Part shown: positions 10,015 through 48,497 of the stretch, piece after piece
Layout of the letters: the number at the start of each line of letters is the position of its first letter
How positions within the stretch are numbered: the stretch's first letter is position 1
From: Escherichia phage vB_EcoM_CRP22
Length of the DNA: 64,000 nt
Strand: one strand, 5' to 3'
Sequence record: OQ708377.1
Translations under genes and position numbers: made by a program
Notes under the pieces: generated by a model
What the model was told of the DNA's origin: nothing
Databases searched by the model: none
The model's input: the letters and a program-made list of their open reading frames with translations, nothing else

Positions 10015-10091
10015 CTCTGTTTAGCTCAGCTTGGTAGAGCGTTCCGTTTGGGGCGGTAAGGCCGGAGGTTCAAGTCCTCCAACAGAGACCA
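10015..10091 (+). tRNA. tRNA-Pro (anticodon TGG)
   Basis: 7-bp acceptor ctctgtt/aacagag, D-arm GCTCAGCTTGGTAGAGC, T-arm ggagg-ttcaagt-cctcc, CCA encoded. Confidence 0.75.
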
Positions 10092-10098
10092 AATTAAT

Positions 10099-10176
10099 GT
10101 TCCAGTAGACAAAATGGTATAGTCACCACTCTTTCAAAGTGGATATTTGAGGGTTCAAATCCCTTCTGGAACGCCA
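10099..10176 (+). tRNA. tRNA-Glu (anticodon TTC)
   Basis: Acceptor gttccag/ctggaac, anticodon stem ccact/agtgg with loop ctTTCaa, T-loop ttcaaat, CCA. Confidence 0.75.
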
Positions 10177-10267
10177 GTTTTGACAGAAGACCAATTACAG
10201 CAAGTTTAATCTTATTCATCTGACACGAAATCGGACAAAGAAGAGATTTGGTCTGGTCATTAAGAAT

Positions 10268-10344
10268 TGCGGGTATAGAGAAAGGGCGTCTCACATGTCT
10301 CATTAGCATGGTATCGGCAGGTTCGACTCCTGCACCCGCCTCCA
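10268..10344 (+). tRNA. tRNA-Met (anticodon CAT)
   Basis: Acceptor tgcgggt/acccgcc, anticodon loop ctCATta, T-arm gcagg-ttcgact-cctgc, CCA. Confidence 0.65.
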
Positions 10345-10421
10345 ATTTTGCAGAAGACCGTATTCAGCAACAAACTACTTTTTGCGGATAAAAGAAAAAA
10401 CACGGTCTGGCAATGTATTAA

Positions 10422-10497
10422 GGTTAGGAAGCACATAAGGTATGTGCGGTCGCCTGTTAAGCGAATGGCACAGGGTTCGAATCCCTGACTAACCGCA
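10422..10497 (+). tRNA. tRNA-Asn (anticodon GTT)
   Basis: Anticodon loop ctGTTaa, T-arm caggg-ttcgaat-ccctg; acceptor has one mismatch. Confidence 0.6.
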
Positions 10498-10506
10498 AAA
10501 TTAAAT

Positions 10507-10594
10507 GTGTCGTTATCCCGTAGATGGTAGCGGTGGGGACTGTAAATCCCTTGTCATTGAGACTCGGTAGGTTCGACTCCTACACGGCACACCA
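10507..10594 (+). tRNA. tRNA-Tyr (anticodon GTA), long variable arm
   Basis: Acceptor gtgtcgt/acggcac, anticodon stem gggga/tccct with loop ctGTAaa, long extra arm, T-arm gtagg-ttcgact-cctac, CCA. Confidence 0.7.
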
Positions 10595-10616
10595 ACACTT
10601 AGCGAGATACTTAGTT

Positions 10617-11045
10617 ATGAGAGATGAAGTATACAAATCACAACTTGGTATGAGTTTAGGAACTGCACAAAACAGACTAGTAAAAGATTTGCTATTCGAT
10701 TTTATATGTAAAACAAATCAAAATAGATGTTTTCAGTGCGGAAAAGAAATGACTAGGGATGATTTCTCCATCGAGCATAAGGTTCCGTGGAGACATAGTG
10801 AAAACGCAAAAGAGCTTTTCTTTTCACTGGATAATATCTCTTATAGTCATCTTAAATGTAATATGAAAGCAGCAAGACCAGCACAGATAAGTGAAAGAAA
10901 ACATAAAACAGTTGAACACGGAACTGCGTATAGCTATTACAAAGGCTGTAGATGCGAGGAGTGTAGGTTGGCTAAGAATGCTGCTAGCAGGAAGAACTAT
11001 AGCCCAGAAAGGCGTAGGAAGAAGTATTTAAGAAATGGCACATAG
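10617..11045 (+). CDS. HNH endonuclease (free-standing, inside tRNA array)
   Basis: 143 aa from internal ATG; CFQCGKEM...EHKVPW...HLKCN zinc-binding HNH-like motifs; the track ORF start at 10524 overlaps tRNA-Tyr and is rejected. Confidence 0.7.
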   Translation: MRDEVYKSQLGMSLGTAQNRLVKDLLFDFICKTNQNRCFQCGKEMTRDDFSIEHKVPWRHSENAKELFFSLDNISYSHLKCNMKAARPAQISERKHKTVEHGTAYSYYKGCRCEECRLAKNAASRKNYSPERRRKKYLRNGT

Positions 11046-11049
11046 TTTT

Positions 11050-11125
11050 GGGGTATTAGTTTAGACGGTTAAAATACGGGATTGTCTCTCCTGAGCCGCG
11101 AGTTCGATTCTCGCATACCTCGCCA
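11050..11125 (+). tRNA. tRNA-Asp (anticodon GTC)
   Basis: Acceptor ggggtat/atacctc, anticodon stem cggga/tcctg with loop ttGTCtc, T-arm gcgag-ttcgatt-ctcgc, CCA. Confidence 0.7.
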
Positions 11126-11273
11126 ATTTTGAGAGGGCTATTTAGCCCCTCCCTTAAAGAGTTATTACGAGTATTCTTTAAAGGAGCAGAAGACCAAATT
11201 CAGCAAGTTACTTAAAATTTCAAGCCAATTTAATTTTGAAAAATTTAAAACTTGGTCTGGCTTAACAAATTTA

Positions 11274-11404
11274 CAGAAGACCGTTTACAGCAAAACTTAA
11301 ACAATCTATTTCTCGGTAAAGAAAAGGCGAAGGTTCGATTCCTTCACTCGGCAGATGTCGAGTTGGTGTAATGGTAGCACTTAAGATGATAAACAACGGT
11401 CTGG
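11274..11404 (+). ncRNA. Candidate structured ncRNA: circularly permuted tRNA-like module enclosed by an 8-bp stem (possible Y-RNA/YrlA-like element)
   Basis: Linear order is stem strand agaccgtt, T-arm gaagg-ttcgatt-ccttc, acceptor 3' strand actcggc, 4-nt loop, acceptor 5' strand gtcgagt, D-arm gtgt-aatggta-gcac, stem strand aacggtct; the acceptor halves pair over 7 bp. Confidence 0.35.
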
Positions 11405-11405
11405 T

Positions 11406-11551
11406 AATTATCTTTGCAGTAGCTTATGTGGCTAATTATGTCGTCCCATGAGTGCCGATGAATTTCCTTAGCATGATTCTAGATTAGCTTAATAGGGAAT
11501 GACTCTACAGACCCTTTAGCAAGGTCTGCGTAGGTTACTGCAAAGATAATT
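11406..11551 (+). ncRNA. Candidate structured RNA domain closed by a 16-bp stem
   Basis: aattatctttgcagta (11406-11421) is the perfect reverse complement of tactgcaaagataatt (11535-11550), enclosing ~112 nt with an internal cagacc...ggtctg hairpin. Confidence 0.3.
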
Positions 11552-11555
11552 TAAT

Positions 11556-11631
11556 GGAAGTGTAGCAGAATGGTGATGCGGCAGACTTTTAATCTGACAG
11601 GCGATGGGTTCGAATCCATCCACTTCTACCA
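11556..11631 (+). tRNA. tRNA-Lys (anticodon TTT)
   Basis: Acceptor ggaagtg/cacttct, anticodon loop ctTTTaa, T-loop ttcgaat, CCA. Confidence 0.6.
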
Positions 11632-11635
11632 ATAT

Positions 11636-11712
11636 GGTTCAGTCGCAGATAAGGTAATGCAGGGGTCTCATAAGCCCTATGAATGTGGGTTCGATTCCCA
11701 TCTGAACCTCCA
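11636..11712 (+). tRNA. tRNA with anticodon CAT (Met, initiator-like, or Ile2)
   Basis: Acceptor ggttcag/ctgaacc, anticodon loop ctCATaa on a stem with three consecutive G-C pairs, T-loop ttcgatt, CCA. Confidence 0.7.
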
Positions 11713-11714
11713 AT

Positions 11715-11790
11715 GCTGTGAAAGCACATATGGATGTGCATTCGGCTGATAACCGAAAGGAAGAAGGTTCGAATCCTTCTCACAGTACCA
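11715..11790 (+). tRNA. tRNA-Ile (anticodon GAT)
   Basis: Acceptor gctgtga/tcacagt, anticodon stem ttcgg/ccgaa with loop ctGATaa, T-arm gaagg-ttcgaat-ccttc, CCA. Confidence 0.7.
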
Positions 11791-11805
11791 ATTTCAATAA
11801 AGTTG

Positions 11806-11834
11806 TTGACATTGAGATGTGACCACTTTATAGT
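11806..11834 (+). promoter_or_regulatory. sigma70-like promoter inside the tRNA array
   Basis: TTGACA - 17 nt - TATAGT, preceded by A-rich tract aaagttg. Confidence 0.5.
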
Positions 11835-12126
11835 AACTAAAATACTTCATAATATGTATAATTCAAACACCAATACATGAGTATTAGACGTAATGCAATG
11901 TGGGGAAATTTGTTGTACATATTCTGAATAGTTTTCGTTGCGTAGCGTCTATTTTGCAAATTTAAAATAAATGCAAACGACAATGTTTTTCTGGCAGTAG
12001 CTTGATAGGCTAAACACCAGTGAGGTCTTCCAATCCCTCATCAAAGAATTTGGCGTACTCGCCCACGGTATGATTAATAAGGTGGGCATCTTTAAGGGTT
12101 TTTAAGAGAGTCTTTAAAGATAATTA

Positions 12127-12208
12127 CGGGGCGTATCTCAGCTGTCTTCTAAACAGCCGTTAACCGAGTAAGTGGAGTATGCGGGTTCGAGTCCTGCCGC
12201 CTCGACCA
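12127..12208 (+). tRNA. Atypical tRNA-like gene, possibly Arg (anticodon TCT); D-arm not resolvable
   Basis: Acceptor cggggcg/cgcctcg, T-arm gcggg-ttcgagt-cctgc, CCA; clean stem gctgt/acagc with loop ctTCTaa but no canonical D-arm by eye. Confidence 0.4.
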
Positions 12209-12222
12209 ATTTTGGAGAAATC

Positions 12223-12570
12223 ATGAAAACTTGTATTAGGTGCAAACTTAGCAAGGATGAAAATGATTTCTACATGAAAGATGGTAGAAGAACTCATTCA
12301 TACTGTAAAAAGTGTGTTAATGAGCAAACCATAGAAAGACAAAGAGCACTTAAACTCTCAGCTATTGAGTACAAAGGTGGTGTTTGTCAGGATTGTGGTA
12401 AAAGGTATCATCCAGCAGTGTATGACTTCCATCATTTGAATCCTTCAGAGAAAGATTTTAACATTGCTCATAGAAGAAGTCTTAAGTTCTCTCAGGAGCT
12501 TAAGAACGAACTTGACAAATGTGTTTTGCTATGTTCAAATTGCCATAGGGTAAGACATGCAAAGTATTAG
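12223..12570 (+). CDS. HNH endonuclease (free-standing, inside tRNA array)
   Basis: 115 aa from internal ATG (MKTCIRCK...); CxxC pairs and FHHLNP...LLCSNCHRVRH HNH motif; the track start at 12172 overlaps the preceding tRNA-like gene. Confidence 0.7.
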   Translation: MKTCIRCKLSKDENDFYMKDGRRTHSYCKKCVNEQTIERQRALKLSAIEYKGGVCQDCGKRYHPAVYDFHHLNPSEKDFNIAHRRSLKFSQELKNELDKCVLLCSNCHRVRHAKY

Positions 12571-12707
12571 TTAGCAGATTGCTTAGACGACCTTATCGGG
12601 TCTCCGTGTAAGGAGGTGGTCTGTATCTCATGTTTTCCAGAACATGTAAATAATCTGAGAAGGGGCTTTACAGTGTTGAGATAATACGGTAAGCTTCGAA
12701 TTATAAT

Positions 12708-12790
12708 ATGGGACGATGTTAAGACTCTAAGGCATGAGCAACGGCTTCCAACACCGTTTCAAAGGGGTTCAACTCCTCCGTCCCATGCCA
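12708..12790 (+). tRNA. Atypical tRNA-like gene with an apparent 9-nt anticodon loop
   Basis: Perfect acceptor atgggac/gtcccat, T-loop ttcaact, CCA; best anticodon helix aacgg/ccgtt encloses cttccaaca (9 nt); D-region longer than canonical. Confidence 0.4.
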
Positions 12791-12803
12791 AAGTCTTATT
12801 AGG

Positions 12804-12893
12804 GGTAGGTAGCGGCTAATGGTAGCCAAACTGTCTTGAAAACAGTTGCCACTGTAGAGATACGGTGAGGGTTCGACTCCTTTACTTACCGCC
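12804..12893 (+). tRNA. tRNA-Ser (anticodon TGA), long variable arm
   Basis: Acceptor ggtaggt/acttacc, anticodon stem actgt/acagt with loop ctTGAaa, long variable arm, T-loop ttcgact. Confidence 0.7.
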
Positions 12894-13148
12894 TAATAAG
12901 ATTTAAAGCCAAGCTTCATTCGGATGTTGCTTTGGTATCCCTCGTGTATTGTCGTACACACTGATAAAGCACCTGGTAGGTGTCACGGAGAAGAGATAAT
13001 ATCAAGCTCTCCAAAGGTTCTAGTCACCGGATTAAACAAGACTATGCAAAGACCAATTTAGGTCTTTTTAGAGGGCTTCTAAGGTTATTACAGCTTGTTG
13101 TGGAACCTTGTTGCTTAGGTTCTTAGAAGTTCTCTAAAAAGATTTAAT

Positions 13149-13225
13149 GCACCTATAGCCCAATTGGTAGAGGCAGCAGACTTAGAATCTGTTCAGTGTG
13201 AGTTCGAATCTCTCTAGGTGTACCA
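13149..13225 (+). tRNA. tRNA with anticodon TAG (Leu-type), short variable arm
   Basis: Acceptor gcaccta/taggtgt, anticodon stem gcaga/tctgt with loop ctTAGaa, T-loop ttcgaat, A73, CCA. Confidence 0.6.
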
Positions 13226-13232
13226 AATTAAT

Positions 13233-13308
13233 GCAGGTGTAGCAAAATGGTTATGCGGCTGACTCTTAATCAGTAAGACGATGGGTTCAATTCCCTCCAC
13301 CTGTACCA
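13233..13308 (+). tRNA. tRNA-Lys (anticodon CTT)
   Basis: Acceptor gcaggtg/cacctgt, anticodon stem gctga/tcagt with loop ctCTTaa, T-loop ttcaatt (weak T-stem), CCA. Confidence 0.55.
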
Positions 13309-13314
13309 AACATT

Positions 13315-13390
13315 GGGGTCATAGTTTATATGGTTAAAATTCGAGTTTTGCAAACTTGGGAACTGAGTTCAATTCTCAGTGACTCCACCA
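13315..13390 (+). tRNA. tRNA-Ala (anticodon TGC)
   Basis: Acceptor ggggtca/tgactcc, anticodon stem cgagt/acttg with loop ttTGCaa, T-arm ctgag-ttcaatt-ctcag, CCA. Confidence 0.7.
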
Positions 13391-13396
13391 ATTAGT

Positions 13397-13471
13397 GCAT
13401 CCATAGTTTAAACGGGAAAATTACAGTCTTCCAAACTGAGGTTGAGGGTTCGATTCCCTCTGGATGCTCCA
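13397..13471 (+). tRNA. tRNA-Gly (anticodon TCC)
   Basis: Acceptor gcatcca/tggatgc, anticodon loop ctTCCaa, T-arm gaggg-ttcgatt-ccctc, CCA. Confidence 0.7.
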
Positions 13472-13478
13472 AATTAAT

Positions 13479-13555
13479 GCTGCTTTCGTATAATTGGCTA
13501 TTACACATCCCTTGTAAGGATGGAAATGCAGGTTCGAGTCCTGTGAGCAGCACCA
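13479..13555 (+). tRNA. tRNA-Thr (anticodon TGT)
   Basis: Acceptor gctgctt/gagcagc, anticodon stem catcc/ggatg with loop ctTGTaa, T-arm gcagg-ttcgagt-cctgt, CCA. Confidence 0.7.
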
Positions 13556-13651
13556 ATTCAGAGGTCAAGTGAAAGACCGCTTTGAGTCAACTGAAGACCG
13601 TAACAAATCCCACGGAGTTGAGTTAGCGGCACAACTTCAGACCTCTTTCAT

Positions 13652-13726
13652 ACTCGCTTAGTTTATATGGTAAAACATCAACCTTACAAGATGAAGAAAA
13701 AGGTTCAAGTCCTTTAGTGAGTACCA
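13652..13726 (+). tRNA. tRNA-Val (anticodon TAC)
   Basis: Acceptor actcgct/agtgagt, D-stem gttt/aaac, anticodon loop ctTACaa, T-arm aaagg-ttcaagt-ccttt, CCA. Confidence 0.65.
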
Positions 13727-13727
13727 T

Positions 13728-13805
13728 GTTCCAGTATCCCAATTGGCAGAGGATGCAAGCTCAAACCTTGTATTAGTGACGGTTCGAATCCGTCTTGGAA
13801 CACCA
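13728..13805 (+). tRNA. tRNA with anticodon CAA (Leu-type), short variable arm
   Basis: Acceptor gttccag/ttggaac, anticodon stem gcaag/cttgt with loop ctCAAac, T-arm gacgg-ttcgaat-ccgtc, A73, CCA. Confidence 0.6.
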
Positions 13806-13810
13806 ATTTT

Positions 13811-13885
13811 GCAGGATTAGTTCAAATGGATAGAGCAACAGTCTACGAAGCTGTTAATAGGGGTTCGAATCCCTTATCCTGCGCC
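13811..13885 (+). tRNA. tRNA-Arg (anticodon ACG)
   Basis: Perfect acceptor gcaggat/atcctgc, D-arm TAGTTCAAATGGATAGAGC, anticodon loop ctACGaa, T-loop ttcgaat, CCA. Confidence 0.75.
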
Positions 13886-13892
13886 AATTAAA

Positions 13893-13969
13893 TAGGGGAT
13901 TAGTTTACAAGGTTAAAACCTCGGTCTTTGAAATCGAAGAAGTTGGTTCAATTCCAACATCCCCCGCCA
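13893..13969 (+). tRNA. tRNA-Gln (anticodon TTG)
   Basis: Acceptor aggggat/atccccc (1-72 mismatch), D-stem gttt/aaac, anticodon stem tcggt/atcga with loop ctTTGaa, T-arm gttgg-ttcaatt-ccaac, CCA. Confidence 0.65.
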
Positions 13970-13971
13970 AT

Positions 13972-14050
13972 GCTCCATTACTCCAATTGGCAGAGAGGCC
14001 AGACTTAAAATCTGTGTTATGTATCGGTTCGAATCCGATATGGAGTACCA
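13972..14050 (+). tRNA. tRNA with anticodon TAA (Leu-type)
   Basis: Acceptor gctccat/atggagt, anticodon loop ctTAAaa, T-arm atcgg-ttcgaat-ccgat, A73, CCA; D-arm parse ambiguous. Confidence 0.55.
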
Positions 14051-14055
14051 AATTT

Positions 14056-14131
14056 AGCGGTATAGCATAACTGGCAATGCAGCAGTCTCTGAAGCTGTCT
14101 TATTAAGGTTCAAATCCTTATGCCGCTGCCA
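14056..14131 (+). tRNA. tRNA-Gln (anticodon CTG)
   Basis: Acceptor agcggta/tgccgct, D-stem gcat/atgc, anticodon stem gcagt/gctgt with loop ctCTGaa, T-loop ttcaaat, CCA. Confidence 0.65.
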
Positions 14132-14162
14132 CTTCTAAGGGTTCTTACGAGAGTCCTTAAAT

Positions 14163-14238
14163 GTGGCCTTATCATAAAAGGTAATGACCCATGCTGTGAA
14201 CATGGTCTATACGGGTTCAAATCCCGTAGGTCACCCCA
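14163..14238 (+). tRNA. tRNA-His (anticodon GTG)
   Basis: Acceptor gtggcct/aggtcac, anticodon stem ccatg/catgg with loop ctGTGaa, T-arm acggg-ttcaaat-cccgt, CCA. Confidence 0.7.
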
Positions 14239-14243
14239 ATTTA

Positions 14244-14320
14244 TAGTCCAAGTAGCTTATATGGTTAAAGCGCGTGTCTGAAAAACATGAGAAGAGGGTT
14301 CAAATCCCACTGGACTACCA
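14244..14320 (+). tRNA. tRNA-Phe (anticodon GAA)
   Basis: Acceptor tagtcca/tggacta, D-stem gctt/aagc, anticodon stem cgtgt/acatg with loop ctGAAaa, T-loop ttcaaat. Confidence 0.6.
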
Positions 14321-14337
14321 ATTTCAAAGGTGCTTAA

Positions 14338-15071
14338 TGAAAGAGATGACAGAACAAGGTAAGGAGATTTTTAATCTCTTAAAAACCGGTAGAGGGTTTT
14401 CTAATCCCCTTATTACTGGTGCAGCAGTTCTCGGTGGAACCGTAGCTACCTCTACATCACTTGTAAACTCTATTAGCTCTGTAACAGACCCTACAATAAA
14501 GGATAAACTTGTTGCTGCTGGACTTACAACAGTTCTGCTTAACAGCTTTACAACGAGTCTGACAAGCACTACATCAACCACTAAAACACCGACAGATTAC
14601 GGTCAAAAGTCCATTGATGAGTTTTCATCACGTATGCAGGTAGCAAAAGGATACTCTAATGTTATGGGTGCAGCAGGAGAGCAAGTTGGTTGTACACCAT
14701 TTAGTGGTATTATGGGTGTTGCTACAGAGTATGGTCAAAAAGCTATTGACACAATTAACAGTGCACTAGACGGTGTTAATGATGTATTAAGTGACTTACA
14801 AGATGCTATTGATAAAGGTCTTGATACTATTTCTGATTTAGCTAACCAAGCTGTTAGTAAGATTAATGAAGGTATTTCGAAGATTACAGCTTATGCAGAT
14901 GAAGTTGTGCAGATGATTGAAGAAGAAGCTGCCCTTATTGCAGAGTACCTTAAAACGAATATCAATGGGTTCTTAGCAGGTATCTTACCAGACTGGTTTG
15001 ACGATGCTTGTAAAACTGGTGTGATTGATACTATTGCAACACCAGAAATGAAGAACGCATTACAGAAATAA
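14338..15071 (+). CDS. hypothetical Ser/Thr-rich protein encoded inside the tRNA array
   Basis: 244 aa from internal ATG (MKEMTEQGKEIF...); the track start at 14274 overlaps tRNA-Phe; long S/T-rich region followed by a helical C-terminus. Confidence 0.45.
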
Positions 15072-15072
15072 T

Positions 15073-15165
15073 GGAAGATTAACCCTAAAAGGTAAGGGAG
15101 CAGTTTGCTAAACTGCCAGTAGCTGAGAAATCGGTGTACCAGTTCAAGTCTGGTATCTTCCTCCA
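15073..15165 (+). tRNA. tRNA-Ser (anticodon GCT), long variable arm
   Basis: Perfect acceptor ggaagat/atcttcc, anticodon stem gcagt/actgc with loop ttGCTaa, long variable arm, T-arm accag-ttcaagt-ctggt, CCA. Confidence 0.75.
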
Positions 15166-15169
15166 ATTT

Positions 15170-15245
15170 GAATCCGTGACAGAAATGGCTATGTGCCTGT
15201 CTGCAAAACAGGTTTATAAGGGTTCGAGTCCCTTCGGATTCTCCA
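15170..15245 (+). tRNA. tRNA-Cys (anticodon GCA)
   Basis: Perfect acceptor gaatccg/cggattc, anticodon stem cctgt/acagg with loop ctGCAaa, T-arm aaggg-ttcgagt-ccctt, CCA. Confidence 0.75.
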
Positions 15246-23447: not shown

Positions 23448-23845
23448 GACTCTTAAACAGACACAGCTTTGTAGTAAAGCGTAAAGTCTCTGAAGACGGT
23501 TATTATAACGATGATGGTGATTGGGTAGCTTCACAAGATATTGTAGAGGTTAACTGTAAAGGTAATATCCAGCCATATATCAAAGGTTCTGTAAAGAATG
23601 GTACACAGATTGCTTTACCGGAAGGTATTAGGCTTACCGATACAAGAATCCTGTATACCACATATAAACTTAGAACTTCAGATGATGTAGAGTGGAATGA
23701 GTCTGATATTGTTATGATTGATGGTCATGAGTATGAAGTATTTATGACTATGGATTGGTCACAGCAATTAGCCCATACGTCCCATTATGAATATATCATT
23801 ATTAGAAGGGATAAAATGAATGCAGTTAGAAACAGCAGAACTTGA
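23444..23845 (+). CDS. hypothetical protein (head-tail joining region)
   Basis: 133 aa. Confidence 0.45.
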   Translation: MRLLNRHSFVVKRKVSEDGYYNDDGDWVASQDIVEVNCKGNIQPYIKGSVKNGTQIALPEGIRLTDTRILYTTYKLRTSDDVEWNESDIVMIDGHEYEVFMTMDWSQQLAHTSHYEYIIIRRDKMNAVRNSRT

Positions 23846-26948: not shown

Positions 26949-34964
<8,016 letters not shown>

Positions 34965-34966
34965 TA

Positions 34967-36154
34967 ATGGCAGTAGGTGAAATTCAAATTAGTGCCTTGC
35001 CTCAAGCAGCCTTACCAATTGACCTTAGTGATATCTTCCATCTTAAGCAGGGTATTGAGGATAAGAGGTGTACTCTTGAGCAATTACTTGCTCCACACTC
35101 AAGTCTAAAAAATAACCCTCATGGTGTTACTAAAACACAAATTGGTTTAGATAATGTTATTAATGCTCTTCAATTAGTTGCTGCAAATAACTTATCAGAT
35201 ATTGTTAATGTAGCTGAGGCAAGAGCAAATCTACAGATTATGTCTTCAGAAGAGGTTAATAACCTTGTCCAGCAACATACCAAGGACAAGAGTAACCCAC
35301 ACAATACAACTAAGGCACAGGTTGGTTTAAGTAATGTCCAGAACTGGACAACATCTAATCTGTATAACGAAGATGCAGATAAGTATGCTACAGCAAGAGC
35401 AGTAAATAACTTGTACAAGGCTGTTCAGGCTTCTTATCCAGTAGGTACTATCCATCTTTCTATGAACTCTGCAAACCCTTCTACATACTTAATTTGTGGA
35501 GGTACTTGGGAGTTAGTTTCAAAAGGTAGGGCATTGGTTGGTTATGACTCTGAGACAAGGCCAGCAGGTTCTGTATTTGGTGCTTCAACTGTCACTTTGT
35601 CAGTTAATAACATGCCTCAACACTCACACTCTGTATCTCTTAGTGGTGGTGGTCACACTCATAATGCAACTGTTTCAATTTCAGCTTTTGACTATGGGAC
35701 TAAGACTACCAACTCTTTTGACTATGGGACTAAGACTACTAACACAACTGGTAACCACAACCATGTTGGTAGTGGGTCAACAAGTGCTGCTGGTGCTCAC
35801 AACCACAGATTAACCTATGAAGCGGGTGGTGGTCTATCGGAAAGACCTGCAATGGTCTGGTCTTCAAGGAATGACCAATCGTGGTACTCAGCAGATGTTG
35901 TCTGTGAAGTCGCTGGTGCGCACACCCACTCTTTCAGTGTTACCACCAACACAACTGGTGACCACAACCATACGGTGGGTATTGGTGCTCACAGTCACAC
36001 AGTTGGTATTGGTTCGCATACGCACAATGGTACTGTGACAGTTTCTTCTTCTGAGCATACGCATAGTGGAAACACGAACAGTGTTGGTGGAGGTCAGGCT
36101 GTGAATATTGAGCAGCCATCCTTTGTACTTTATGTATGGCAGAGAACAGCTTAA
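34967..36154 (+). CDS. tail fibre protein with His-rich C-terminal repeats
   Basis: 395 aa; C-terminal HxH motifs ([38 protein letters not shown]) typical of tail fibre tips; contains a 30-bp tandem duplication. Confidence 0.65.
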   Translation: MAVGEIQISALPQAALPIDLSDIFHLKQGIEDKRCTLEQLLAPHSSLKNNPHGVTKTQIGLDNVINALQLVAANNLSDIVNVAEARANLQIMSSEEVNNLVQQHTKDKSNPHNTTKAQVGLSNVQNWTTSNLYNEDADKYATARAVNNLYKAVQASYPVGTIHLSMNSANPSTYLICGGTWELVSKGRALVGYDSETRPAGSVFGASTVTLSVNNMPQHSHSVSLSGGGHTHNATVSISAFDYGTKTTNSFDYGTKTTNTTGNHNHVGSGSTSAAGAHNHRLTYEAGGGLSERPAMVWSSRNDQSWYSADVVCEVAGAHTHSFSVTTNTTGDHNHTVGIGAHSHTVGIGSHTHNGTVTVSSSEHTHSGNTNSVGGGQAVNIEQPSFVLYVWQRTA

Positions 36155-38661: not shown

Positions 38662-38859
38662 ATGCCTACAATCCTAGCAATTCTTCTAAAAAATCTAGGT
38701 AGCTTCTTCTGGAAACTCATTTTATCCCTTCTAAGTGAATACATGATTGAGAAAGTGTTCTTTAGGCTTGCAAGGTATCTTGCAAGTAAAACAGACACAC
38801 CTATTGATGATGAGTTCGTAGATAACTTAGAAAAAGCTTTTAAGGGGGAGAATAAATGA
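38662..38859 (+). CDS. small membrane protein (holin-like candidate)
   Basis: 65 aa with N-terminal hydrophobic segment ILAILLKNLGSFFWKLILSLL and charged C-terminus. Confidence 0.35.
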   Translation: MPTILAILLKNLGSFFWKLILSLLSEYMIEKVFFRLARYLASKTDTPIDDEFVDNLEKAFKGENK

Positions 38860-39227
38860 AGTGGCTAGAGGAAGCTTTTAAAAATAATATTGGTGCAATT
38901 GTAGTTGGTATTTTTAGTGTTATTGGGATGTATACCACCATGCAAGTCTCGGATGGTAAGCAAGAAGTGTCTATCACAACAAAGTTACAGCAGTTAGATA
39001 ATTATTCCAAAAGTAATTATTCAGCTATTCGTGATTTACAGTCTGATGTGAGGCTGCTTCAGCTAGGGATGGAGAACCAGAAAGTCCAGTTAGAGAATGT
39101 TAAGGGTGAGAACGCAAAACTTACTAAGACTCTTGATAAATTCTCTGATAGTGTGAACAATCTGGCTCAATCAGTATCAGCCCTCCAAGCTATTACTGAA
39201 AAGAACACAAAGAATACTGAAAAGTAA
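38856..39227 (+). CDS. membrane-anchored coiled-coil protein (spanin-like or lysis-associated candidate)
   Basis: 123 aa; N-terminal TM IGAIVVGIFSVIGMY followed by heptad-like Q/L-rich region. Confidence 0.35.
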   Translation: MKWLEEAFKNNIGAIVVGIFSVIGMYTTMQVSDGKQEVSITTKLQQLDNYSKSNYSAIRDLQSDVRLLQLGMENQKVQLENVKGENAKLTKTLDKFSDSVNNLAQSVSALQAITEKNTKNTEK

Positions 39228-41496: not shown

Positions 41497-41856
41497 TTAT
41501 GGGAACAGACACTTAATGTCATCGTTTTTGAAAACGAAACTTGTGTAGTTGTGACCATCAACATCCAGCCAAACAGCCTGAACATCTACACCATCAAGAT
41601 TCTGGTAAAGCTCTTTGATGAAGTGGTCTTTTACAATCTGACTGCTAGTTGTTTCCAGCTTAATGTTAGAGATTGCTGAACCTACAGCCATATAACCCAT
41701 GACACGTTTCTTCTCAGTATGCTTAATCTTACCATCTTTGTAAGCCATAATGAGATTGGAAAGAATCTTCACACCATAATACTTTTCAAGGTGAGTCGGT
41801 ACACCATAAAAACCTAATGCGAAGTTTTCAGAGTGGATAATGTTTTCACGTTTCAT
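41497..41856 (-). CDS. hypothetical protein
   Basis: 119-aa ORF. Confidence 0.45.
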   Translation of the reverse strand: MKRENIIHSENFALGFYGVPTHLEKYYGVKILSNLIMAYKDGKIKHTEKKRVMGYMAVGSAISNIKLETTSSQIVKDHFIKELYQNLDGVDVQAVWLDVDGHNYTSFVFKNDDIKCLFP

Positions 41857-41857
41857 A

Positions 41858-42157
41858 TTAATCTGCCAGCCTTAAATTAAAATTAACACCAAATTTTTCA
41901 CATACTTCCAACATAAACTCAAGAGAGACATTACCAGTGAGATTAATTATGTTGGATACACGAGCCTGAGAGATACCACAAATTTTAGCAACTTGCTCTT
42001 GAGAAAGACCTCTGGATTTAATCTCTCTCTTAAAACGATGTGCAACGAAATCTCTCATTTCGTCTACATCCATTGGACAAATATAACTCTCCATTTCAGC
42101 CTCTCTGTCAGCCTCCCAATCATCTTGTGGAGCATAAGGGTCAAAAACCTCATTCAT
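41858..42157 (-). CDS. helix-turn-helix (XRE-like) DNA-binding protein
   Basis: C-terminal LSQEQVAKICGISQARVSNIIN is an HTH signature; start set to the internal ATG (MNEVFD) which has a GGAAG RBS. Confidence 0.55.
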   Translation of the reverse strand: MNEVFDPYAPQDDWEADREAEMESYICPMDVDEMRDFVAHRFKREIKSRGLSQEQVAKICGISQARVSNIINLTGNVSLEFMLEVCEKFGVNFNLRLAD

Positions 42158-42363: not shown

Positions 42364-42747
42364 TCAAATACCTGTGCAGCTTCTGTTTTCTAAGAAATAC
42401 TCAACACCATACATAGCTTTTTGCATCAAGTCTTCTTTAAACTGAATACGATGATTGAGCATAGCCTGTACATCAATATCTTCATGGTGCTTCTCTTTAA
42501 TGTTTGCAGATTGCAGGAAATACTCTGCAAGAACACGATACTGATAGTCAGTTACCTTATCAGTCATCTCTGTCAAAGACTCTTCAGAGATTGGTTTAAG
42601 TAACTCACCATTAGCTAGAGCAACACCTTTAACAATCTGGCAAGTGTCTTCTGGAACACCTGATAAGTCCACATTGGGAAGTTCTGTTGCATTGACTGGT
42701 AAATTCATTGCCATAACCATTGCAGCAGCTAATAAAATCTTTTTCAT
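42364..42747 (-). CDS. secreted/periplasmic hypothetical protein
   Basis: 127 aa; N-terminal signal peptide MKKILLAAAMVMAMNLPVNA. Confidence 0.5.
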   Translation of the reverse strand: MKKILLAAAMVMAMNLPVNATELPNVDLSGVPEDTCQIVKGVALANGELLKPISEESLTEMTDKVTDYQYRVLAEYFLQSANIKEKHHEDIDVQAMLNHRIQFKEDLMQKAMYGVEYFLENRSCTGI

Positions 42748-42860
42748 AATGACCTCAAAGTTATATTAAATTTTGTATTACGATGAGTATAAAAATAAGC
42801 TATAACACCTGACTTGTCAACAGATTTTATAGCTTATTTGGCAGATTTTTTATAAGGCTA

Positions 42861-43140
42861 CTGCCATCCTTCCATACTTTACCGAACATCACCCTACTGA
42901 ACCCGACCCTACCTCACCCGACCCAACCGAACCGTACCGAGCACAGCCTTATTAAAAGACCCTGTTTAAAGACCTTTTAAAAAGGTAAGTCTCATTTTAA
43001 TGTAGCTGAGACTAACTACCCATACTTCACATCACCGCACCATACTACACCTGACACCACCTTACACCACCGCACCATACCTGACCAAGCTACACATCAC
43101 TTAAAAACCCTCTTAGAAGACTCTTAAGTGATGCTGGTGA
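42861..43140. repeat. Strand-asymmetric C/A-rich intergenic tract with short direct repeats
   Basis: Plus strand nearly G-free: acccgaccctacctcacccgacccaaccgaaccgtaccg and caccgcaccatac repeated; minus strand carries GGG-N2-GGG-N7-GGG-N2-GGG. Confidence 0.5.
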
Positions 43141-43197
43141 GTACCCGTTGGTTTATGCTGCTCAGTATACTCACCAAATTTTCTATGTCAACAACTT

Positions 43198-44301
43198 TTA
43201 TTCATAATCTCGTATAACTAGACCAACAGGGAACTGTAAAGACCCCTTACGAGTCATCTTCTGGAACTGTACCGTTAAAGGTTTTCCGATAAACTCTTCA
43301 GGATGCTCAGCAAGATACTGTTTCTTCTCATGAGTGGTTTTCCATGAGACATCCACAAAGACGTTAGGAAGAGTCTCTACAACGAACTTGCCATGACCAC
43401 GCTTATCAGTCTTTACACCAGTCACTTTAAACTCTTCAGTGTGCATCTTCTTGTGCTTAATCAAGAAGTATGAACGGTGACAACACTCATAGAAGGAGTT
43501 TTCAGAGATTGAACGGTACATTGCACCTTCAAACTTAGCTTCAACCCACTTATCATGAGCTTCATCGAACTCTTCCCAAGAATTTACACGACGAGACTTA
43601 ACAGGGACAACTTTACAGCCATCTCTAAAGTCATTCAATGGTGAAGTCTCAATGATATCTCTACGCTCAGGCCACGTCTTAGTACTGTCACAGATATCAT
43701 ACCAGTAAAACTTGAGTAGGTGTCTGTCAGGATTGTCTTCATTTTTAATCATGGAGACGATATCTTCTAAGTCCCACCCATGAGCATAAATCTCTCCATC
43801 AAATTCATCAACATCTTTGTGGAGCCTTAACATTGCCATAATGTCATGTATTAGTTCAGTAGGGATTTTGTAAACAGTATTTTCACGAGAGTATGCTGTG
43901 AATACACTGCCAATACTTAAGTGCCTTGAAATCCTACAACGAACACCATCAAGTTTTGGTTGAGCATCAGCAGGGAATATCAAATACTTTGCATGACTAA
44001 CTTTTGCAGCATCATGAGCAAGCTGTACACCTACCTTTTCAGTGTTCTGTGCAGACTCTTTTGTGTAAGCATAACCTTTACGGTCAACTTGCTTTTTATA
44101 CTTAGCAGCAACTTCAAAGAGAGCTTGCTGTTCAGCATTACGCTCATTCTTTTTACCGATGTTTTTCGGTTCTGCTGTGTACTCTTCAAACATCATCTTG
44201 CCATTTTCTTTACCGTAGGTTGTAATAACTTTGTCACCTACAGCAACGCATGACCAGACGTTAAAAGAGCCATCTTTATTTTGTTTGTATAGAATTGTCA
44301 T
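43198..44301 (-). CDS. ATP-dependent DNA ligase
   Basis: 367 aa; adenylation motif KLDGVR (KxDG) and downstream nucleotidyltransferase-like blocks. Confidence 0.85.
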   Translation of the reverse strand: MTILYKQNKDGSFNVWSCVAVGDKVITTYGKENGKMMFEEYTAEPKNIGKKNERNAEQQALFEVAAKYKKQVDRKGYAYTKESAQNTEKVGVQLAHDAAKVSHAKYLIFPADAQPKLDGVRCRISRHLSIGSVFTAYSRENTVYKIPTELIHDIMAMLRLHKDVDEFDGEIYAHGWDLEDIVSMIKNEDNPDRHLLKFYWYDICDSTKTWPERRDIIETSPLNDFRDGCKVVPVKSRRVNSWEEFDEAHDKWVEAKFEGAMYRSISENSFYECCHRSYFLIKHKKMHTEEFKVTGVKTDKRGHGKFVVETLPNVFVDVSWKTTHEKKQYLAEHPEEFIGKPLTVQFQKMTRKGSLQFPVGLVIRDYE

Positions 44302-45738: not shown

Positions 45739-48438
45739 TCAATGTACCTCATACCAGCTCTTACCAACCTTTGCTGTACCAGTTACAAGTGTTTCTTTCC
45801 TCAAACCTAAGTTTTTTGAAGCTTGTCCATACATCCAGTCAGCAATTGCTTTCATATCATGTGTCATACCCTCTGGACATTCCCAACTATTTTCATCGTG
45901 ATATGCCAGAAGTAACCTTGCTCCGATAGCTGGTTTTCGAGCATTCAGTTTTGTCAGGCCATCTTCACAGGCTTTTCTTGCTGCTAGGTTGATGGCCTCA
46001 TTCTGAATCTGTGCTTCCGAACTCATCAGGAGGTAGTTCAGTAGTTTATGTGGAGATTTGCACCATATCCATGCTCCAGCGACCCTGATATAACCACCTT
46101 TAGCAATTGAAGAGTTCTTCCCAAAAACCTCTTCCAGAGCCTTTTTAGACGCCTTAAAATCAGCTTCTAAGCTATCAAGTAACTTCTTAATCTTTGGCAA
46201 ACGCATATAGTAAGTTTGTTTAGTCAATGCACCTTCTTCCGTAGATGATGCCTTGATAGTTTTTGCAAACTTCTCGTCTCCGGCTCCAAATAACAGGGCG
46301 TAGATGCCATTTTTGCTCTTCTTACGACCTTTTGTAATCTCGTGAAGAAGTTCCTCATCCTGTGTCTCCCTGCAACGAACAATATCTTCTTCCTTGTTCA
46401 GACCAAAGTAAATACTATTCAGTGTATGTGCATCAGTACCTGTGTAGACTTCGTAGAGGTCATTCTCAGCATCATAACGAAGATACTTATCAGTTTCTGG
46501 ATTGAGGTACTTATCGAGATGCTTGCAATAGTATCTCCCATCCTCTTGCTTGGTAAATTCTACTGACTCTTTACCTTCAGTTACCGCTTTGGTGAAGTCT
46601 TTATCACCCATAAAGTTACACAGTAAAACAAGCTGTGCAGAGTTCTGGTCAACTGAAACGATATTAGTCCCTTCCTCGCAAATCCAAACCTCCCTCATAG
46701 GCGCTCCATAGACAGCAGCACCAGACGGTACGTTTACAATACCATATTGTGTCATACGTCCAGTTGAAGTACCAAACACCATTGCACCAGCACTAAGGCG
46801 ACCATCAGGACGAATCTGGTTCAACCAACCTTTTTCATCATCCTTTGAGTTCTCAATAGTCCTACGTCGGTGCATCAAAGTATAGTATTTAGCAATCTTC
46901 TGTCCAAGCTCACCTTCAATCGTATCATAAGATGATTCAGTAAGTTTTGGTGAAGTACGGATTAAGCAAGGCTCAAGCAAATCTGTGTACTTCTTCACAG
47001 ACCAGTTATGTTCAATGTACTGGACACCTTCGTGTTCAACATAACTCAAACCACACCGTTCCACCATCTCATCCCACTTAGGATGTTTTGTAATCATCTT
47101 TTTGTTGTCTTTGAAGCGACAAACCTTAACAGGACGACCATCAGAGTCTTTCTTATAGTTCCAGTCATCTGGAATCCAACCAACTGATTTCAAGTAGTCT
47201 TTGACAACTGCTACCTGAGTCATACGAGAAACTTCGAACTCAATTGGTGTATATGGTGCATCAATCAAACCTGTGTAGCGACTTGACTCAAGCTCAAAGT
47301 GGTTAACAACATGGCTGTTATAGTACTTCACAGTTTTAACTGTTTTTACTGGCTTCCAGTCTTTGCACTTCTTACCAATCTTTGCATTCAACTCATTGCA
47401 AATTGCACGAGCATCCTTCATTGCTACAAAGCCTTCCTTGTACTCTTCACCAGTTACAGAGTTGGTTGGTGTATAGCAATTCCGCTTTTCAATGTTAAAA
47501 ATCTTGGTAGTTGGTTTACCAAATGGCTTGATTTCATATGTCTGCATCTCACCGTTGCGTACCTGTTGACGATACTTTGTCTTAGGGTACTTGGTAATCC
47601 TCTTCAGTCCATCTGCATGGCCAAATGCTTCAACATACTCATTCCAAGCTTTTGCAAATTCTTCTCCAGTGACTTTACCTTTAGTCTTAATAGTTGGAGG
47701 AAGATGTGGTTCAACTTCTGAAGCAAGCTCATTAGTCAACTTGTCAAGTTCCTTTACATGAAACTCCATAAGCTCTTTATCAGCTTTCCAACCATTGATA
47801 GCCTGTTGACTCATCCAGAAAGATGTTTCTTTAGCTCGCATGTAGGTTTCATAGGTGTCTACGCCACACTTCTTTAGCTTCAGATATTCATTATCCAATG
47901 CACGTTTAGTTTTGGCGTTGATACGGATATCTTCTACAACACGAGTGAAGATTTCTGCATTCCACACACCCCAATGTTCAATCTCTGGTTTACGGACACC
48001 AACACGAGCACCCCATGCTGCCAAGCCATGAGCACCTTTATAGCCTTTTGGAGTTGGCCTATCCATCCACTGAACACGAGACTGGATAAGAGAATCCTGA
48101 AAGAAATTACTCCACGGCTTACACTTTGGATTATCAAAGTTCCACAAATCAGGTGCAATGTGATTGAAAACCCACCAGTCATACCCTAAACCATTATGGA
48201 TGCAAAGTCGTTTTGCCTTTAACGCAAACTCAACACCTTCACGCAAGCCACCCTTAATGTACTTGGTATACTTGTGACCGAGGATAGGCTCATCTGTAAA
48301 GACCCATACAGGTGGCTCTTCATCGTCAGATTTATAGTCTGCGAAAGCCATTACGTGTACTTTAGTGAACTCAAGGAGTAAACCATCAGTTTCTGTATCA
48401 CCAACTAAATGTAAGTTTTTAAAATCTACGTTTTCCAT
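45739..48438 (-). CDS. DNA polymerase, family A (Pol I-like) with 3'-5' exonuclease domain
   Basis: Exo I motif LVGDTETDG near N-terminus; polymerase motifs KSKNGIYALLFGAG and LLAYHDE; start set to second ATG (MENVDF) preceded by GAGGGAG (track ORF extends to 48471). Confidence 0.9.
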   Translation of the reverse strand: MENVDFKNLHLVGDTETDGLLLEFTKVHVMAFADYKSDDEEPPVWVFTDEPILGHKYTKYIKGGLREGVEFALKAKRLCIHNGLGYDWWVFNHIAPDLWNFDNPKCKPWSNFFQDSLIQSRVQWMDRPTPKGYKGAHGLAAWGARVGVRKPEIEHWGVWNAEIFTRVVEDIRINAKTKRALDNEYLKLKKCGVDTYETYMRAKETSFWMSQQAINGWKADKELMEFHVKELDKLTNELASEVEPHLPPTIKTKGKVTGEEFAKAWNEYVEAFGHADGLKRITKYPKTKYRQQVRNGEMQTYEIKPFGKPTTKIFNIEKRNCYTPTNSVTGEEYKEGFVAMKDARAICNELNAKIGKKCKDWKPVKTVKTVKYYNSHVVNHFELESSRYTGLIDAPYTPIEFEVSRMTQVAVVKDYLKSVGWIPDDWNYKKDSDGRPVKVCRFKDNKKMITKHPKWDEMVERCGLSYVEHEGVQYIEHNWSVKKYTDLLEPCLIRTSPKLTESSYDTIEGELGQKIAKYYTLMHRRRTIENSKDDEKGWLNQIRPDGRLSAGAMVFGTSTGRMTQYGIVNVPSGAAVYGAPMREVWICEEGTNIVSVDQNSAQLVLLCNFMGDKDFTKAVTEGKESVEFTKQEDGRYYCKHLDKYLNPETDKYLRYDAENDLYEVYTGTDAHTLNSIYFGLNKEEDIVRCRETQDEELLHEITKGRKKSKNGIYALLFGAGDEKFAKTIKASSTEEGALTKQTYYMRLPKIKKLLDSLEADFKASKKALEEVFGKNSSIAKGGYIRVAGAWIWCKSPHKLLNYLLMSSEAQIQNEAINLAARKACEDGLTKLNARKPAIGARLLLAYHDENSWECPEGMTHDMKAIADWMYGQASKNLGLRKETLVTGTAKVGKSWYEVH

Positions 48439-48497
48439 TTGCACTCCCTCTAATTCATTAACCTCATACATTACTGCAAAAAATTATAAAAAGCAAG

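Follow-up and report, generated by a model that had tools for sequence, protein, structure and literature searches.

The 64,000-nucleotide stretch of Escherichia phage vB_EcoM_CRP22 analysed here (OQ708377.1; hereafter the window) contains a 450-bp gap between a DNA ligase gene and a 127-codon open reading frame (ORF), and the minus strand of this gap very probably encodes two vrRNAs, the guides of a type II, SUSP1-clade VIPR (Viral Interference Programmable Repeat) locus that is orphaned here, i.e. reduced to its guides. Elements of this kind are already known, as VIPR was described in 2026 in two bioRxiv preprints (10.64898/2026.04.26.720920 and 10.64898/2026.04.26.720927); what is added here is the guide-only state. 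According to both preprints, a vrRNA is made up of 9-16 YNNGG repeats and a conserved pseudoknot tail, and Vipr is a RAMP-fold protein of ~200 aa that binds with one protomer per repeat and conceals the GGY bases. Double-stranded DNA is read by the NN dinucleotides, with every third target base skipped, and binding silences transcription. Guides of the SUSP1 clade mostly aim at a satellite phage in E. coli genomes, and four vrRNAs were detected in SUSP1 by small-RNA sequencing. One of the two preprints also reports that some satellites carry vrRNAs themselves and that there are vrRNAs directed against other VIPR systems.

The regularity that identifies the tract is its phase. On the minus strand, the gap holds two arrays of strictly phased NN-G-G-Y pentamers, with 15 units in the first (vrRNA-A) and 14 in the second (vrRNA-B; Table 1), both within the published range. 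The dinucleotide GT stands in phase 13 times in succession in each array, at 43024-43085 and 42876-42937. No other in-phase GT run of five or more occurs in the 64 kb, and the longest run in 100 first-order Markov simulations of the same length was 3-5. Tandem Repeats Finder reports the arrays at periods of 10, 15 and 20, and the ORF list holds no ORF of at least 40 aa within 42770-43197. A CRISPR array was considered and rejected: the repeated unit is 5 nt long, not a repeat of 24-40 nt with spacers, and the only longer modules are the leaders and tails. Covariance models from Rfam gave only chance-level matches between 40000 and 46000 (E of at least 3, 12-21 bits), and ARAGORN reported nothing at the site.

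Relatives of the locus separate the constant from the variable part of the repeat. The 127-codon ORF served as the query for fetching 23 related loci from IMG/VR, several GenBank records were added, and the comparison set comprised 26 Felixounavirus-type phage sequences, namely the window, 22 metagenomic loci and three GenBank records. Each relative has one to five NNGGY arrays at the site between ligase gene and ORF. Flanks (90-95% identical), hairpins and tails are conserved, and the first two bases of each pentamer vary freely. Over 775 units from 67 unique arrays, the two N positions hold 0.06 and 0.10 bits of information and the G-G-Y positions 0.99, 1.85 and 1.50 bits, the fifth position being T (0.89) or C (0.11) and never a purine. 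Slippage of the arrays is visible, for instance as CAGGT in three to four copies or as an extra AAGGT GGTGT pair. Guide A lies behind the promoter-like site P1 in two vipr-positive relatives, L002 and L011 (2 base differences), and close or slippage variants of it occur in L006, L007 and L013. The array of guide B is found unchanged in three vipr-positive phages and one vipr-negative phage, two of the four being assemblies of LF82P5. The genome paper on Felix O1 lists other repeats, not NNGGY arrays (PMC3185647).

The modules that frame the two arrays, i.e. P1, leaders A and B, both tail types and the element combining terminator and P2, are the same as in SUSP1. P1 follows directly on the ligase stop codon and is the presumed start of the vrRNA transcript; its 28-mer also precedes the upstream vrRNA of SUSP1 and of L011. 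Leader B, whose 3' arm overlaps the first unit of the vrRNA-A tract, recurs in SUSP1 and in all relatives, and leader A also precedes the downstream vrRNAs in SUSP1 and L011. The tail of vrRNA-A is identical to the tails of two downstream vrRNAs of SUSP1. That of vrRNA-B is the same, base for base, as in the last vrRNA of SUSP1 and is present in 25 of the 26 phage sequences, the remaining one having a single-base variant. Across four paralogous tail types, 92.4% of the cells of the predicted pseudoknot pair, compared to 29-38% in slid controls; as the structure was derived from the same sequences, this percentage is biased upward, a bias that leaves unaffected the compensatory changes seen at 9 of the 11 pairs. 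The terminator-like hairpin, with the -35 hexamer of P2 located in its loop, is conserved together with P2 in all relatives and SUSP1. A terminator scan did not call this 3' hairpin because its loop exceeds 8 nt.

A link between such arrays and Vipr emerged from the gene neighbourhoods of arrays in viral contigs. Viral contigs were scanned for (GGTNN)6GGT, which returned at least 120 stretches; besides plain microsatellites, the matches listed contain 46 viral loci with degenerate arrays, some of them with 8-17 arrays in tandem. When all ORFs near degenerate arrays were clustered, without a prior candidate, one dominant family of ~200 aa was found to adjoin the arrays, nearly always on the same strand, at 33 of the 46 array-bearing loci among the matches listed. 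The family ends in the C-terminal motif G-[IV]-G-D-[WF]-R-P...G-R-F, contains no Pfam domain and corresponds to phrog_4652 (unknown function), and its Felixounavirus version matches PDB entry 36pp, 'SUSP1 Vipr protein', with E = 8.5e-129. Further array designs were seen in five unrelated IMG/VR contigs (L045, L123, L034, L035 and L051), each with 7 to 17 arrays of the form (NNGGY)9-18 and with its own punctuation per type. Most arrays of L034 follow a promoter-like TTGCAA-N16/17-TATAAT site of their own, and in L035 the arrays are separated by AAGGCTAATGG only.

The order of the NN dinucleotides carries evidence for a guide function. The NN code was scanned at a one-nucleotide skip against four satellite loci, with a threshold of at least 80% NN match. 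Guide A matches 27, 26 and 26 of its 30 NN positions in the tape-measure gene of three of the four satellites; the match falls on codon positions 1-2 (QMAGKGQVMAEE) and has no mismatch in the 12 units closest to the 3' end. With skips of 0, 2 or 3 nt, 16-22 NN positions match, and with shuffled guides at most 22. Guide B reaches 27 of 28 positions in the serine recombinase gene of the satellite of strain Q5 (NZ_CP127255.1), its controls giving 17-22 at other skip lengths and at most 20 after shuffling. By this code, guide A appears to be programmed against the satellite tape-measure gene and guide B against the serine recombinase gene of the same satellite. The pattern extends to the relatives: 31 of 49 unique vipr-positive guides and 10 of 18 vipr-negative ones reach the threshold at skip 1 only, so that 41 of the 67 unique guides match just four satellite loci at this skip alone.

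No self-targeting at 80% or above was found in the window, the best self-match being that of guide A at 21/30 (70%). This match lies at 27992-28035 in the tape-measure gene of the phage itself, at a site homologous to the satellite target, and satellite and self are therefore separated by only a few NN positions. In L007 and L013, the first vrRNA is a variant of guide A in which the extra AAGGT GGTGT pair has moved the array out of register with the satellite target (21/34 NN), and repeat slippage can therefore inactivate a guide. Of 5,426 complete E. coli genomes, 474 have a 'phage baseplate protein' gene that is ~94% identical in DNA to nt 29197-29755 of the window, within the phage's own baseplate-hub gene (29176-29973), which implies recent gene exchange between helper phage and satellite. 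The islands that carry it are ~10-14 kb long, also have tape-measure and serine recombinase genes, and fit the preprint description of the SUSP1 satellite. Their place in the chromosome varies (mdtG, a DUF72 gene and near tonB).

The window lacks the protein part of the system. Neither tblastn with the Felixounavirus Vipr as query (best E = 0.93) nor a family hidden Markov model built from 30-odd diverse members (best E = 3.4) found a Vipr in the 64 kb, and tblastn found no copy there of the accessory gene vap1 (146 aa, downstream of vipr; best E = 2.8). In SWJM-02, whose layout is that of the window and whose guide A is identical, the complete genome encodes neither Vipr nor Vap. At the same site in 15 of 22 metagenomic relatives, LMP34, SME50 and SUSP1, vipr and vap lie between the upstream and downstream vrRNAs. 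Matches to the region are found in 257 phage records, mostly with 90-95% identity and nearly all from Felix O1-like myoviruses (Ounavirinae, Felixounavirus) of Escherichia, Salmonella, Shigella and Citrobacter, compared to ~118 Felixounavirus-type records with Vipr. The number of vrRNAs differs as well, with two in the window, four in SUSP1 and four or five in vipr-positive Felixounaviruses.

How this state could arise is seen in two assemblies of LF82P5. Their flanks are 99.8-99.9% identical, and a clean segment of 1,398 bp that is present in OZ035800.1 is absent from OZ035761.1. The segment is bounded by two copies of leader A and contains a vrRNA, vipr, vap and another vrRNA; the layout left in OZ035761.1 is exactly that of the window, with an identical guide B. 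By the same signature, the window locus appears to be a deletion derivative. Recombination between the direct leader A repeats would have removed vipr, vap and the inner vrRNAs, and the two remaining guides would therefore have been orphaned. The preprint text, as far as it was searched, does not discuss the flanking of vipr-vap by direct repeats, its ready loss or the guide-only state. No SUSP1-like vipr-vap DNA was found in the 5,426 complete E. coli genomes, and both Vipr and vrRNA arrays are missing from the four satellites, which leaves no evident resident source of Vipr. As a test of decay, GGY integrity was 0.68 in vipr-negative and 0.76 in vipr-positive arrays; this small difference did not set the two groups apart, and guides and leader units common to both confound the comparison.

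In the proposed working of the locus, P1 would drive a transcript through vrRNA-A and vrRNA-B to the hairpin at 42790-42839, in the order P1, leader B hairpin, vrRNA-A, leader A, vrRNA-B and terminator hairpin. To judge from these elements, the orphan guides are probably still transcribed from P1. In a complete system, one Vipr protomer per repeat would sequester GGY, and the exposed NN would pair with double-stranded DNA and silence transcription. Without Vipr, both vrRNAs should be inert, and with Vipr supplied in trans they should silence the tape-measure and integrase genes of the satellite.

Table 1 Features of the VIPR locus in the window and predicted target sites in satellites.
Feature	Position	Strand	Basis
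DNA ligase gene, upstream flank	43198..44301	minus	ORF list; matching records annotate DNA ligase
P1, sigma-70-type promoter-like site, TTGACA-16-TATACT	43164..43191	minus	11/12 consensus positions
Leader B, 19-bp hairpin GCATCACTTAAGAGTCTTC-TAA-GAGGGTTTTTAAGTGATGT	43094..43134	minus	hairpin in minimum-free-energy and centroid folds
vrRNA-A repeat tract, 15 pentamers: GATGT GTAGC TTGGT CAGGT ATGGT GCGGT GGTGT AAGGT GGTGT CAGGT GTAGT ATGGT GCGGT GATGT GAAGT; guide A NN code: GA GT TT CA AT GC GG AA GG CA GT AT GC GA GA	43024..43098	minus	phased register
vrRNA-A 3' tail, H-type pseudoknot, S1 GTAG:CTAC, S2 GTCTCA:TGAGAC	42989..43023	minus	covariation
Leader A (TTACCTTTTTAAAAGGTCTTTAAACAGGGTCTTTTAATAAGGC), spacer between vrRNAs	42946..42988	minus	repeated module
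vrRNA-B repeat tract, 14 pentamers, with incidental G-quadruplex-type motif at 42902-42924: TGTGC TCGGT ACGGT TCGGT TGGGT CGGGT GAGGT AGGGT CGGGT TCAGT AGGGT GATGT TCGGT AAAGT; guide B NN code: TG TC AC TC TG CG GA AG CG TC AG GA TC AA	42876..42945	minus	phased register
vrRNA-B 3' tail, H-type pseudoknot, S1 AAGG:CCTT, S2 GGCAG:CTGCC	42840..42875	minus	covariation
Terminator-like hairpin AATAAGCTATAA ... TTATAGCTTATT then TTTTA	42790..42839	minus	13-bp stem, minimum-free-energy and centroid folds
P2, TTGACA-17-TATTTT, predicted promoter for downstream ORF	42792-42820	minus	10/12 consensus positions
127-codon ORF, starts MKKILLAAAMVMAMNL, N-terminus signal-peptide-like, downstream flank	42364..42747	minus	ORF list
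Guide A predicted site in satellite tape-measure gene: ...CAGATGGCTGGTAAGGGTCAGGTTATGGCTGAAGA...			NN code at one-nucleotide skip
Guide B predicted site in satellite recombinase gene: TGGTCTACGTCCTGACGTGAGAGACGGTCAAGAGATTCTAT	L151 14002-14042		NN code at one-nucleotide skip

Several points weigh against reading the tract as an orphan VIPR locus of this kind. The mechanism rests on two preprints that have not passed peer review, and the expression of the vrRNAs in this phage is predicted from a promoter-like site and a terminator-like hairpin. About half of the vrRNA-A units are non-canonical for GGY (TGT, AGT and AGC), deviations that recur in vipr-positive phages with guide A. The first three NN units of guide A match only half of their bases in every satellite tested, and the target evidence comes from four satellite loci. 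A deletion, rather than an insertion, is read from the direct-repeat signature. The window holds 64 of the ~85-90 kb of the genome, and for the rest the lack of vipr is judged from a relative. Finally, promoter-equipped guides without vipr in about half of the genus could mean that the guides continue to be used.

This last point leads to an alternative in which the guides are kept for use without a vipr of their own, either by loading onto the Vipr of a co-infecting vipr-positive Felixounavirus or by acting as Vipr decoys. P1, the terminator and the tails of both vrRNAs have stayed intact, with sequences identical to those of the functional modules in SUSP1, the two guides still fit satellite genes at 90-96%, and at least one array is present in all 11 vipr-negative phages examined, the window included. 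In addition, vipr is absent from about half of the records, and the preprint mentions both satellites with vrRNAs and vrRNAs against other VIPR systems. The pair of LF82P5 assemblies, however, shows that the vipr-negative state can come from a single recent recombination event, and intact guides therefore need not mean selection. Three vipr-negative relatives with a single array (L003, L004 and L019) reach only 72-77% to any of the four satellites and are low in GGY (5/10 to 8/11 units), the -10 element of P1 in SWJM-02 is changed to TATGCT, and the E. coli genomes and satellites searched offer no SUSP1-like vipr donor. On balance, guides kept for such use seem rather unlikely. Guide-only loci as a maintained strategy rather than debris, riding on the Vipr of relatives or titrating that of a rival, can be given the same small but real chance.

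A complete, working VIPR system with vipr in the ~22-26 kb of the genome outside the window is highly improbable. The window is incomplete, which leaves room for such a gene, yet vipr and vap lie between the ligase gene and the ORF in SUSP1 and in every vipr-positive relative examined, the complete SWJM-02 genome with the same layout has none, and the layout of the window is that of the LF82P5 deletion product. Even less credit remains for arrays without any guide role, be it a degenerate pentanucleotide microsatellite or a TRAP-like binding array for a ring- or filament-forming RNA-binding protein; this can practically be dismissed. The slippage in the arrays is clear, the period, with a triplet followed by a 2-nt spacer, is like that of TRAP sites, and pure microsatellites of the same unit occur in other viral contigs. 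A neutral microsatellite, however, would not hold GGY while NN randomises, the order of NN fits satellite genes almost perfectly when read with gaps, and the associated protein is Vipr, not TRAP; target matches and Vipr association already refute both variants. Besides the binding array for a TRAP-like ring protein, primase recognition sites (GT-containing templates in the style of T7 or T4), a Rho rut site on an antisense C-rich RNA, RecA- or Chi-like GT-rich recombination sites, an RNA polymerase pause consensus, a 65-nt wrapping site for single-stranded DNA-binding protein and a short Gly/Val-rich ORF were considered. They were dropped because none explains a conserved GGY next to an information-free NN, and the satellite-encoding order of NN stands against each of them as well.

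The tract had originally been flagged, from its letters, as an almost G-free, strand-asymmetric region with a G-quadruplex motif that could mark an origin, a regulatory RNA or a transcription pause element. Its placement between the ligase and signal-peptide genes agrees with the ORF list and the record annotations, and the sequences quoted are indeed there: 'acccgacc' at 42901 and 42916, 'ccgaacc' at 42927, the duplicated caccgcaccatac at 43033 and 43068, and on the minus strand GGGTCGGGTGAGGTAGGGTCGGG at 42902-42924, a canonical G-quadruplex motif. The description as almost G-free fits two sub-tracts only (10 of 90 and 6 of 91 bases are G, with 59 bases of ordinary composition between them) and does not extend to the whole of 42861-43140, where 33 of 280 bases are G (11.8%). 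Other 80-base windows of the 64 kb are equally poor in G or C. Such windows with very few G on the plus strand lie at 41837-41924 and 48396-48496 and those with very few C on the plus strand at 23677-23761 and 38827-38935, none of them with a 5-nt GT phase. What the original prediction missed is the strict 5-base period, the actual regularity of the tract.

Regarding function, a regulatory RNA was a fitting suggestion in the broad sense that vrRNAs are small guide RNAs that direct transcriptional silencing, while an origin and a pause element find no support. A G-quadruplex on the G-rich minus strand, marking an origin of replication, a pause site or some structural element of regulation, draws on the canonical motif and on the fact that the overlapping matches in the vrRNA-B array (42892-42924) are the only hits to a G-quadruplex pattern with G-runs of at least three in the 64 kb; GG every 5 nt could in principle also give two-tetrad quadruplexes. 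Comparative data already contradict it, however. The canonical motif is kept in one of 67 unique homologous arrays and one of 26 phage sequences, that of the window itself, and is therefore incidental; it appears in vrRNA-B because four NN dinucleotides there happen to end in G. A quadruplex requires neither the conserved pyrimidine after GG nor the strict 5-nt phase, and NN often contains C, a competitor of G-tetrads. Published structures show Vipr holding the guanines of GGY in a flipped-out state (10.64898/2026.04.26.720927). Cumulative GC skew turns at ~38-39 kb and ~48 kb, where gene orientation switches, with no inflection at 42.9 kb, no evidence in support of a pause element was found, and an NN code matching satellite genes is predicted by the guide model only. 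The quadruplex explanation is thus left with hardly any probability.

Elsewhere in the window, which has a G+C content of ~39%, a cluster of 25 tRNA genes at 10015-15245 lies throughout on the plus strand. The first 1,223 nt (1-1223) form a long stretch without convincing ORFs and with many decamer repeats of the type CTGTTAAGAG. Tandem Repeats Finder counts 6.8 copies at 459-528, further copies are scattered up to ~1100, and a C-poor tract lies within the same stretch at 885-1018; the stretch may serve the phage in regulation, as an origin or as a genome end. Short in-gene tandem duplications in the tail-fibre region, at 35685-35743 (30 nt x2, 96% identity) and 35956-36013 (27 nt x2.1), recall the intragenic repeats reported for genes 76 and 77 of Felix O1. 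Some relatives have, between the ligase gene and P1, an ORF of ~48 codons that resembles a membrane protein (MFSTVILFILVVFVLSYVASKLL...; L001 2390-2500, L011 ~535-680 and L152/L153) and is absent from the window.

With this locus, the phage joins a newly described class of RNA-guided DNA recognition, and the published one-nucleotide-skip code has been reproduced independently from sequence alone. The point added to the preprint text, as far as searched, is that the vipr-vap core is flanked by directly repeated leaders and readily lost, leaving effector-less guides in roughly half of the genus, which bears on the balance of costs and benefits of carrying VIPR. For annotation, it means that intergenic tracts of this kind are genes. 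In candidates for phage therapy from the Felix O1 group, the presence of VIPR may decide how satellites in clinical E. coli are handled. If guide-only loci were indeed maintained, they would be the VIPR counterpart of orphan CRISPR arrays or of RNA anti-CRISPRs.

Among known systems, the closest is the type II VIPR of SUSP1. Both loci lie between the DNA ligase gene and the signal-peptide ORF, share P1, the modules of leaders A and B, the two tail pseudoknots and terminator/P2, and have one-nucleotide-skip targets on codon positions 1-2 in the same kind of E. coli satellite, with tape-measure and hub genes. They differ in that the window has no vipr and vap, two vrRNAs instead of four and other guide sequences, and in that the phage is a Felixounavirus whereas SUSP1 is a Suspvirus. 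Binding sites of TRAP consist of 11 (G/U)AG triplets with spacers of 2-3 nt and are bound by one protein subunit per repeat. The arrays here likewise have about a dozen conserved triplets at a period of ~5 nt, free spacers and one subunit per repeat, but the triplet is GGY rather than (G/U)AG, the spacers carry guide information, and Vipr forms a helical RAMP filament instead of an 11-mer ring, with no TRAP-like gene involved. Orphan CRISPR arrays and phage mini-arrays are guides without an effector gene in the same genome, and their function, if any, needs an effector in trans. By analogy, the guide genes described here also stand without an effector in their genome; unlike those arrays, their guide-only state is one recombination step away from a complete locus, and no resident effector donor was found in E. 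coli genomes. As to Class 1 CRISPR-Cas, with its CRISPR RNA and Cas7, the preprints point out that in both systems a RAMP-fold protein polymerises on the guide and flips bases out at a fixed period, that the unflipped bases are free for target pairing, and that a variable guide is capped by a conserved handle. VIPR differs by its period of 5 nt (3 hidden, 2 read) compared to 6 nt (1 hidden) in CRISPR and by its one-nucleotide skip, and it is encoded by phages and works without CRISPR repeats, adaptation genes or a protospacer adjacent motif.

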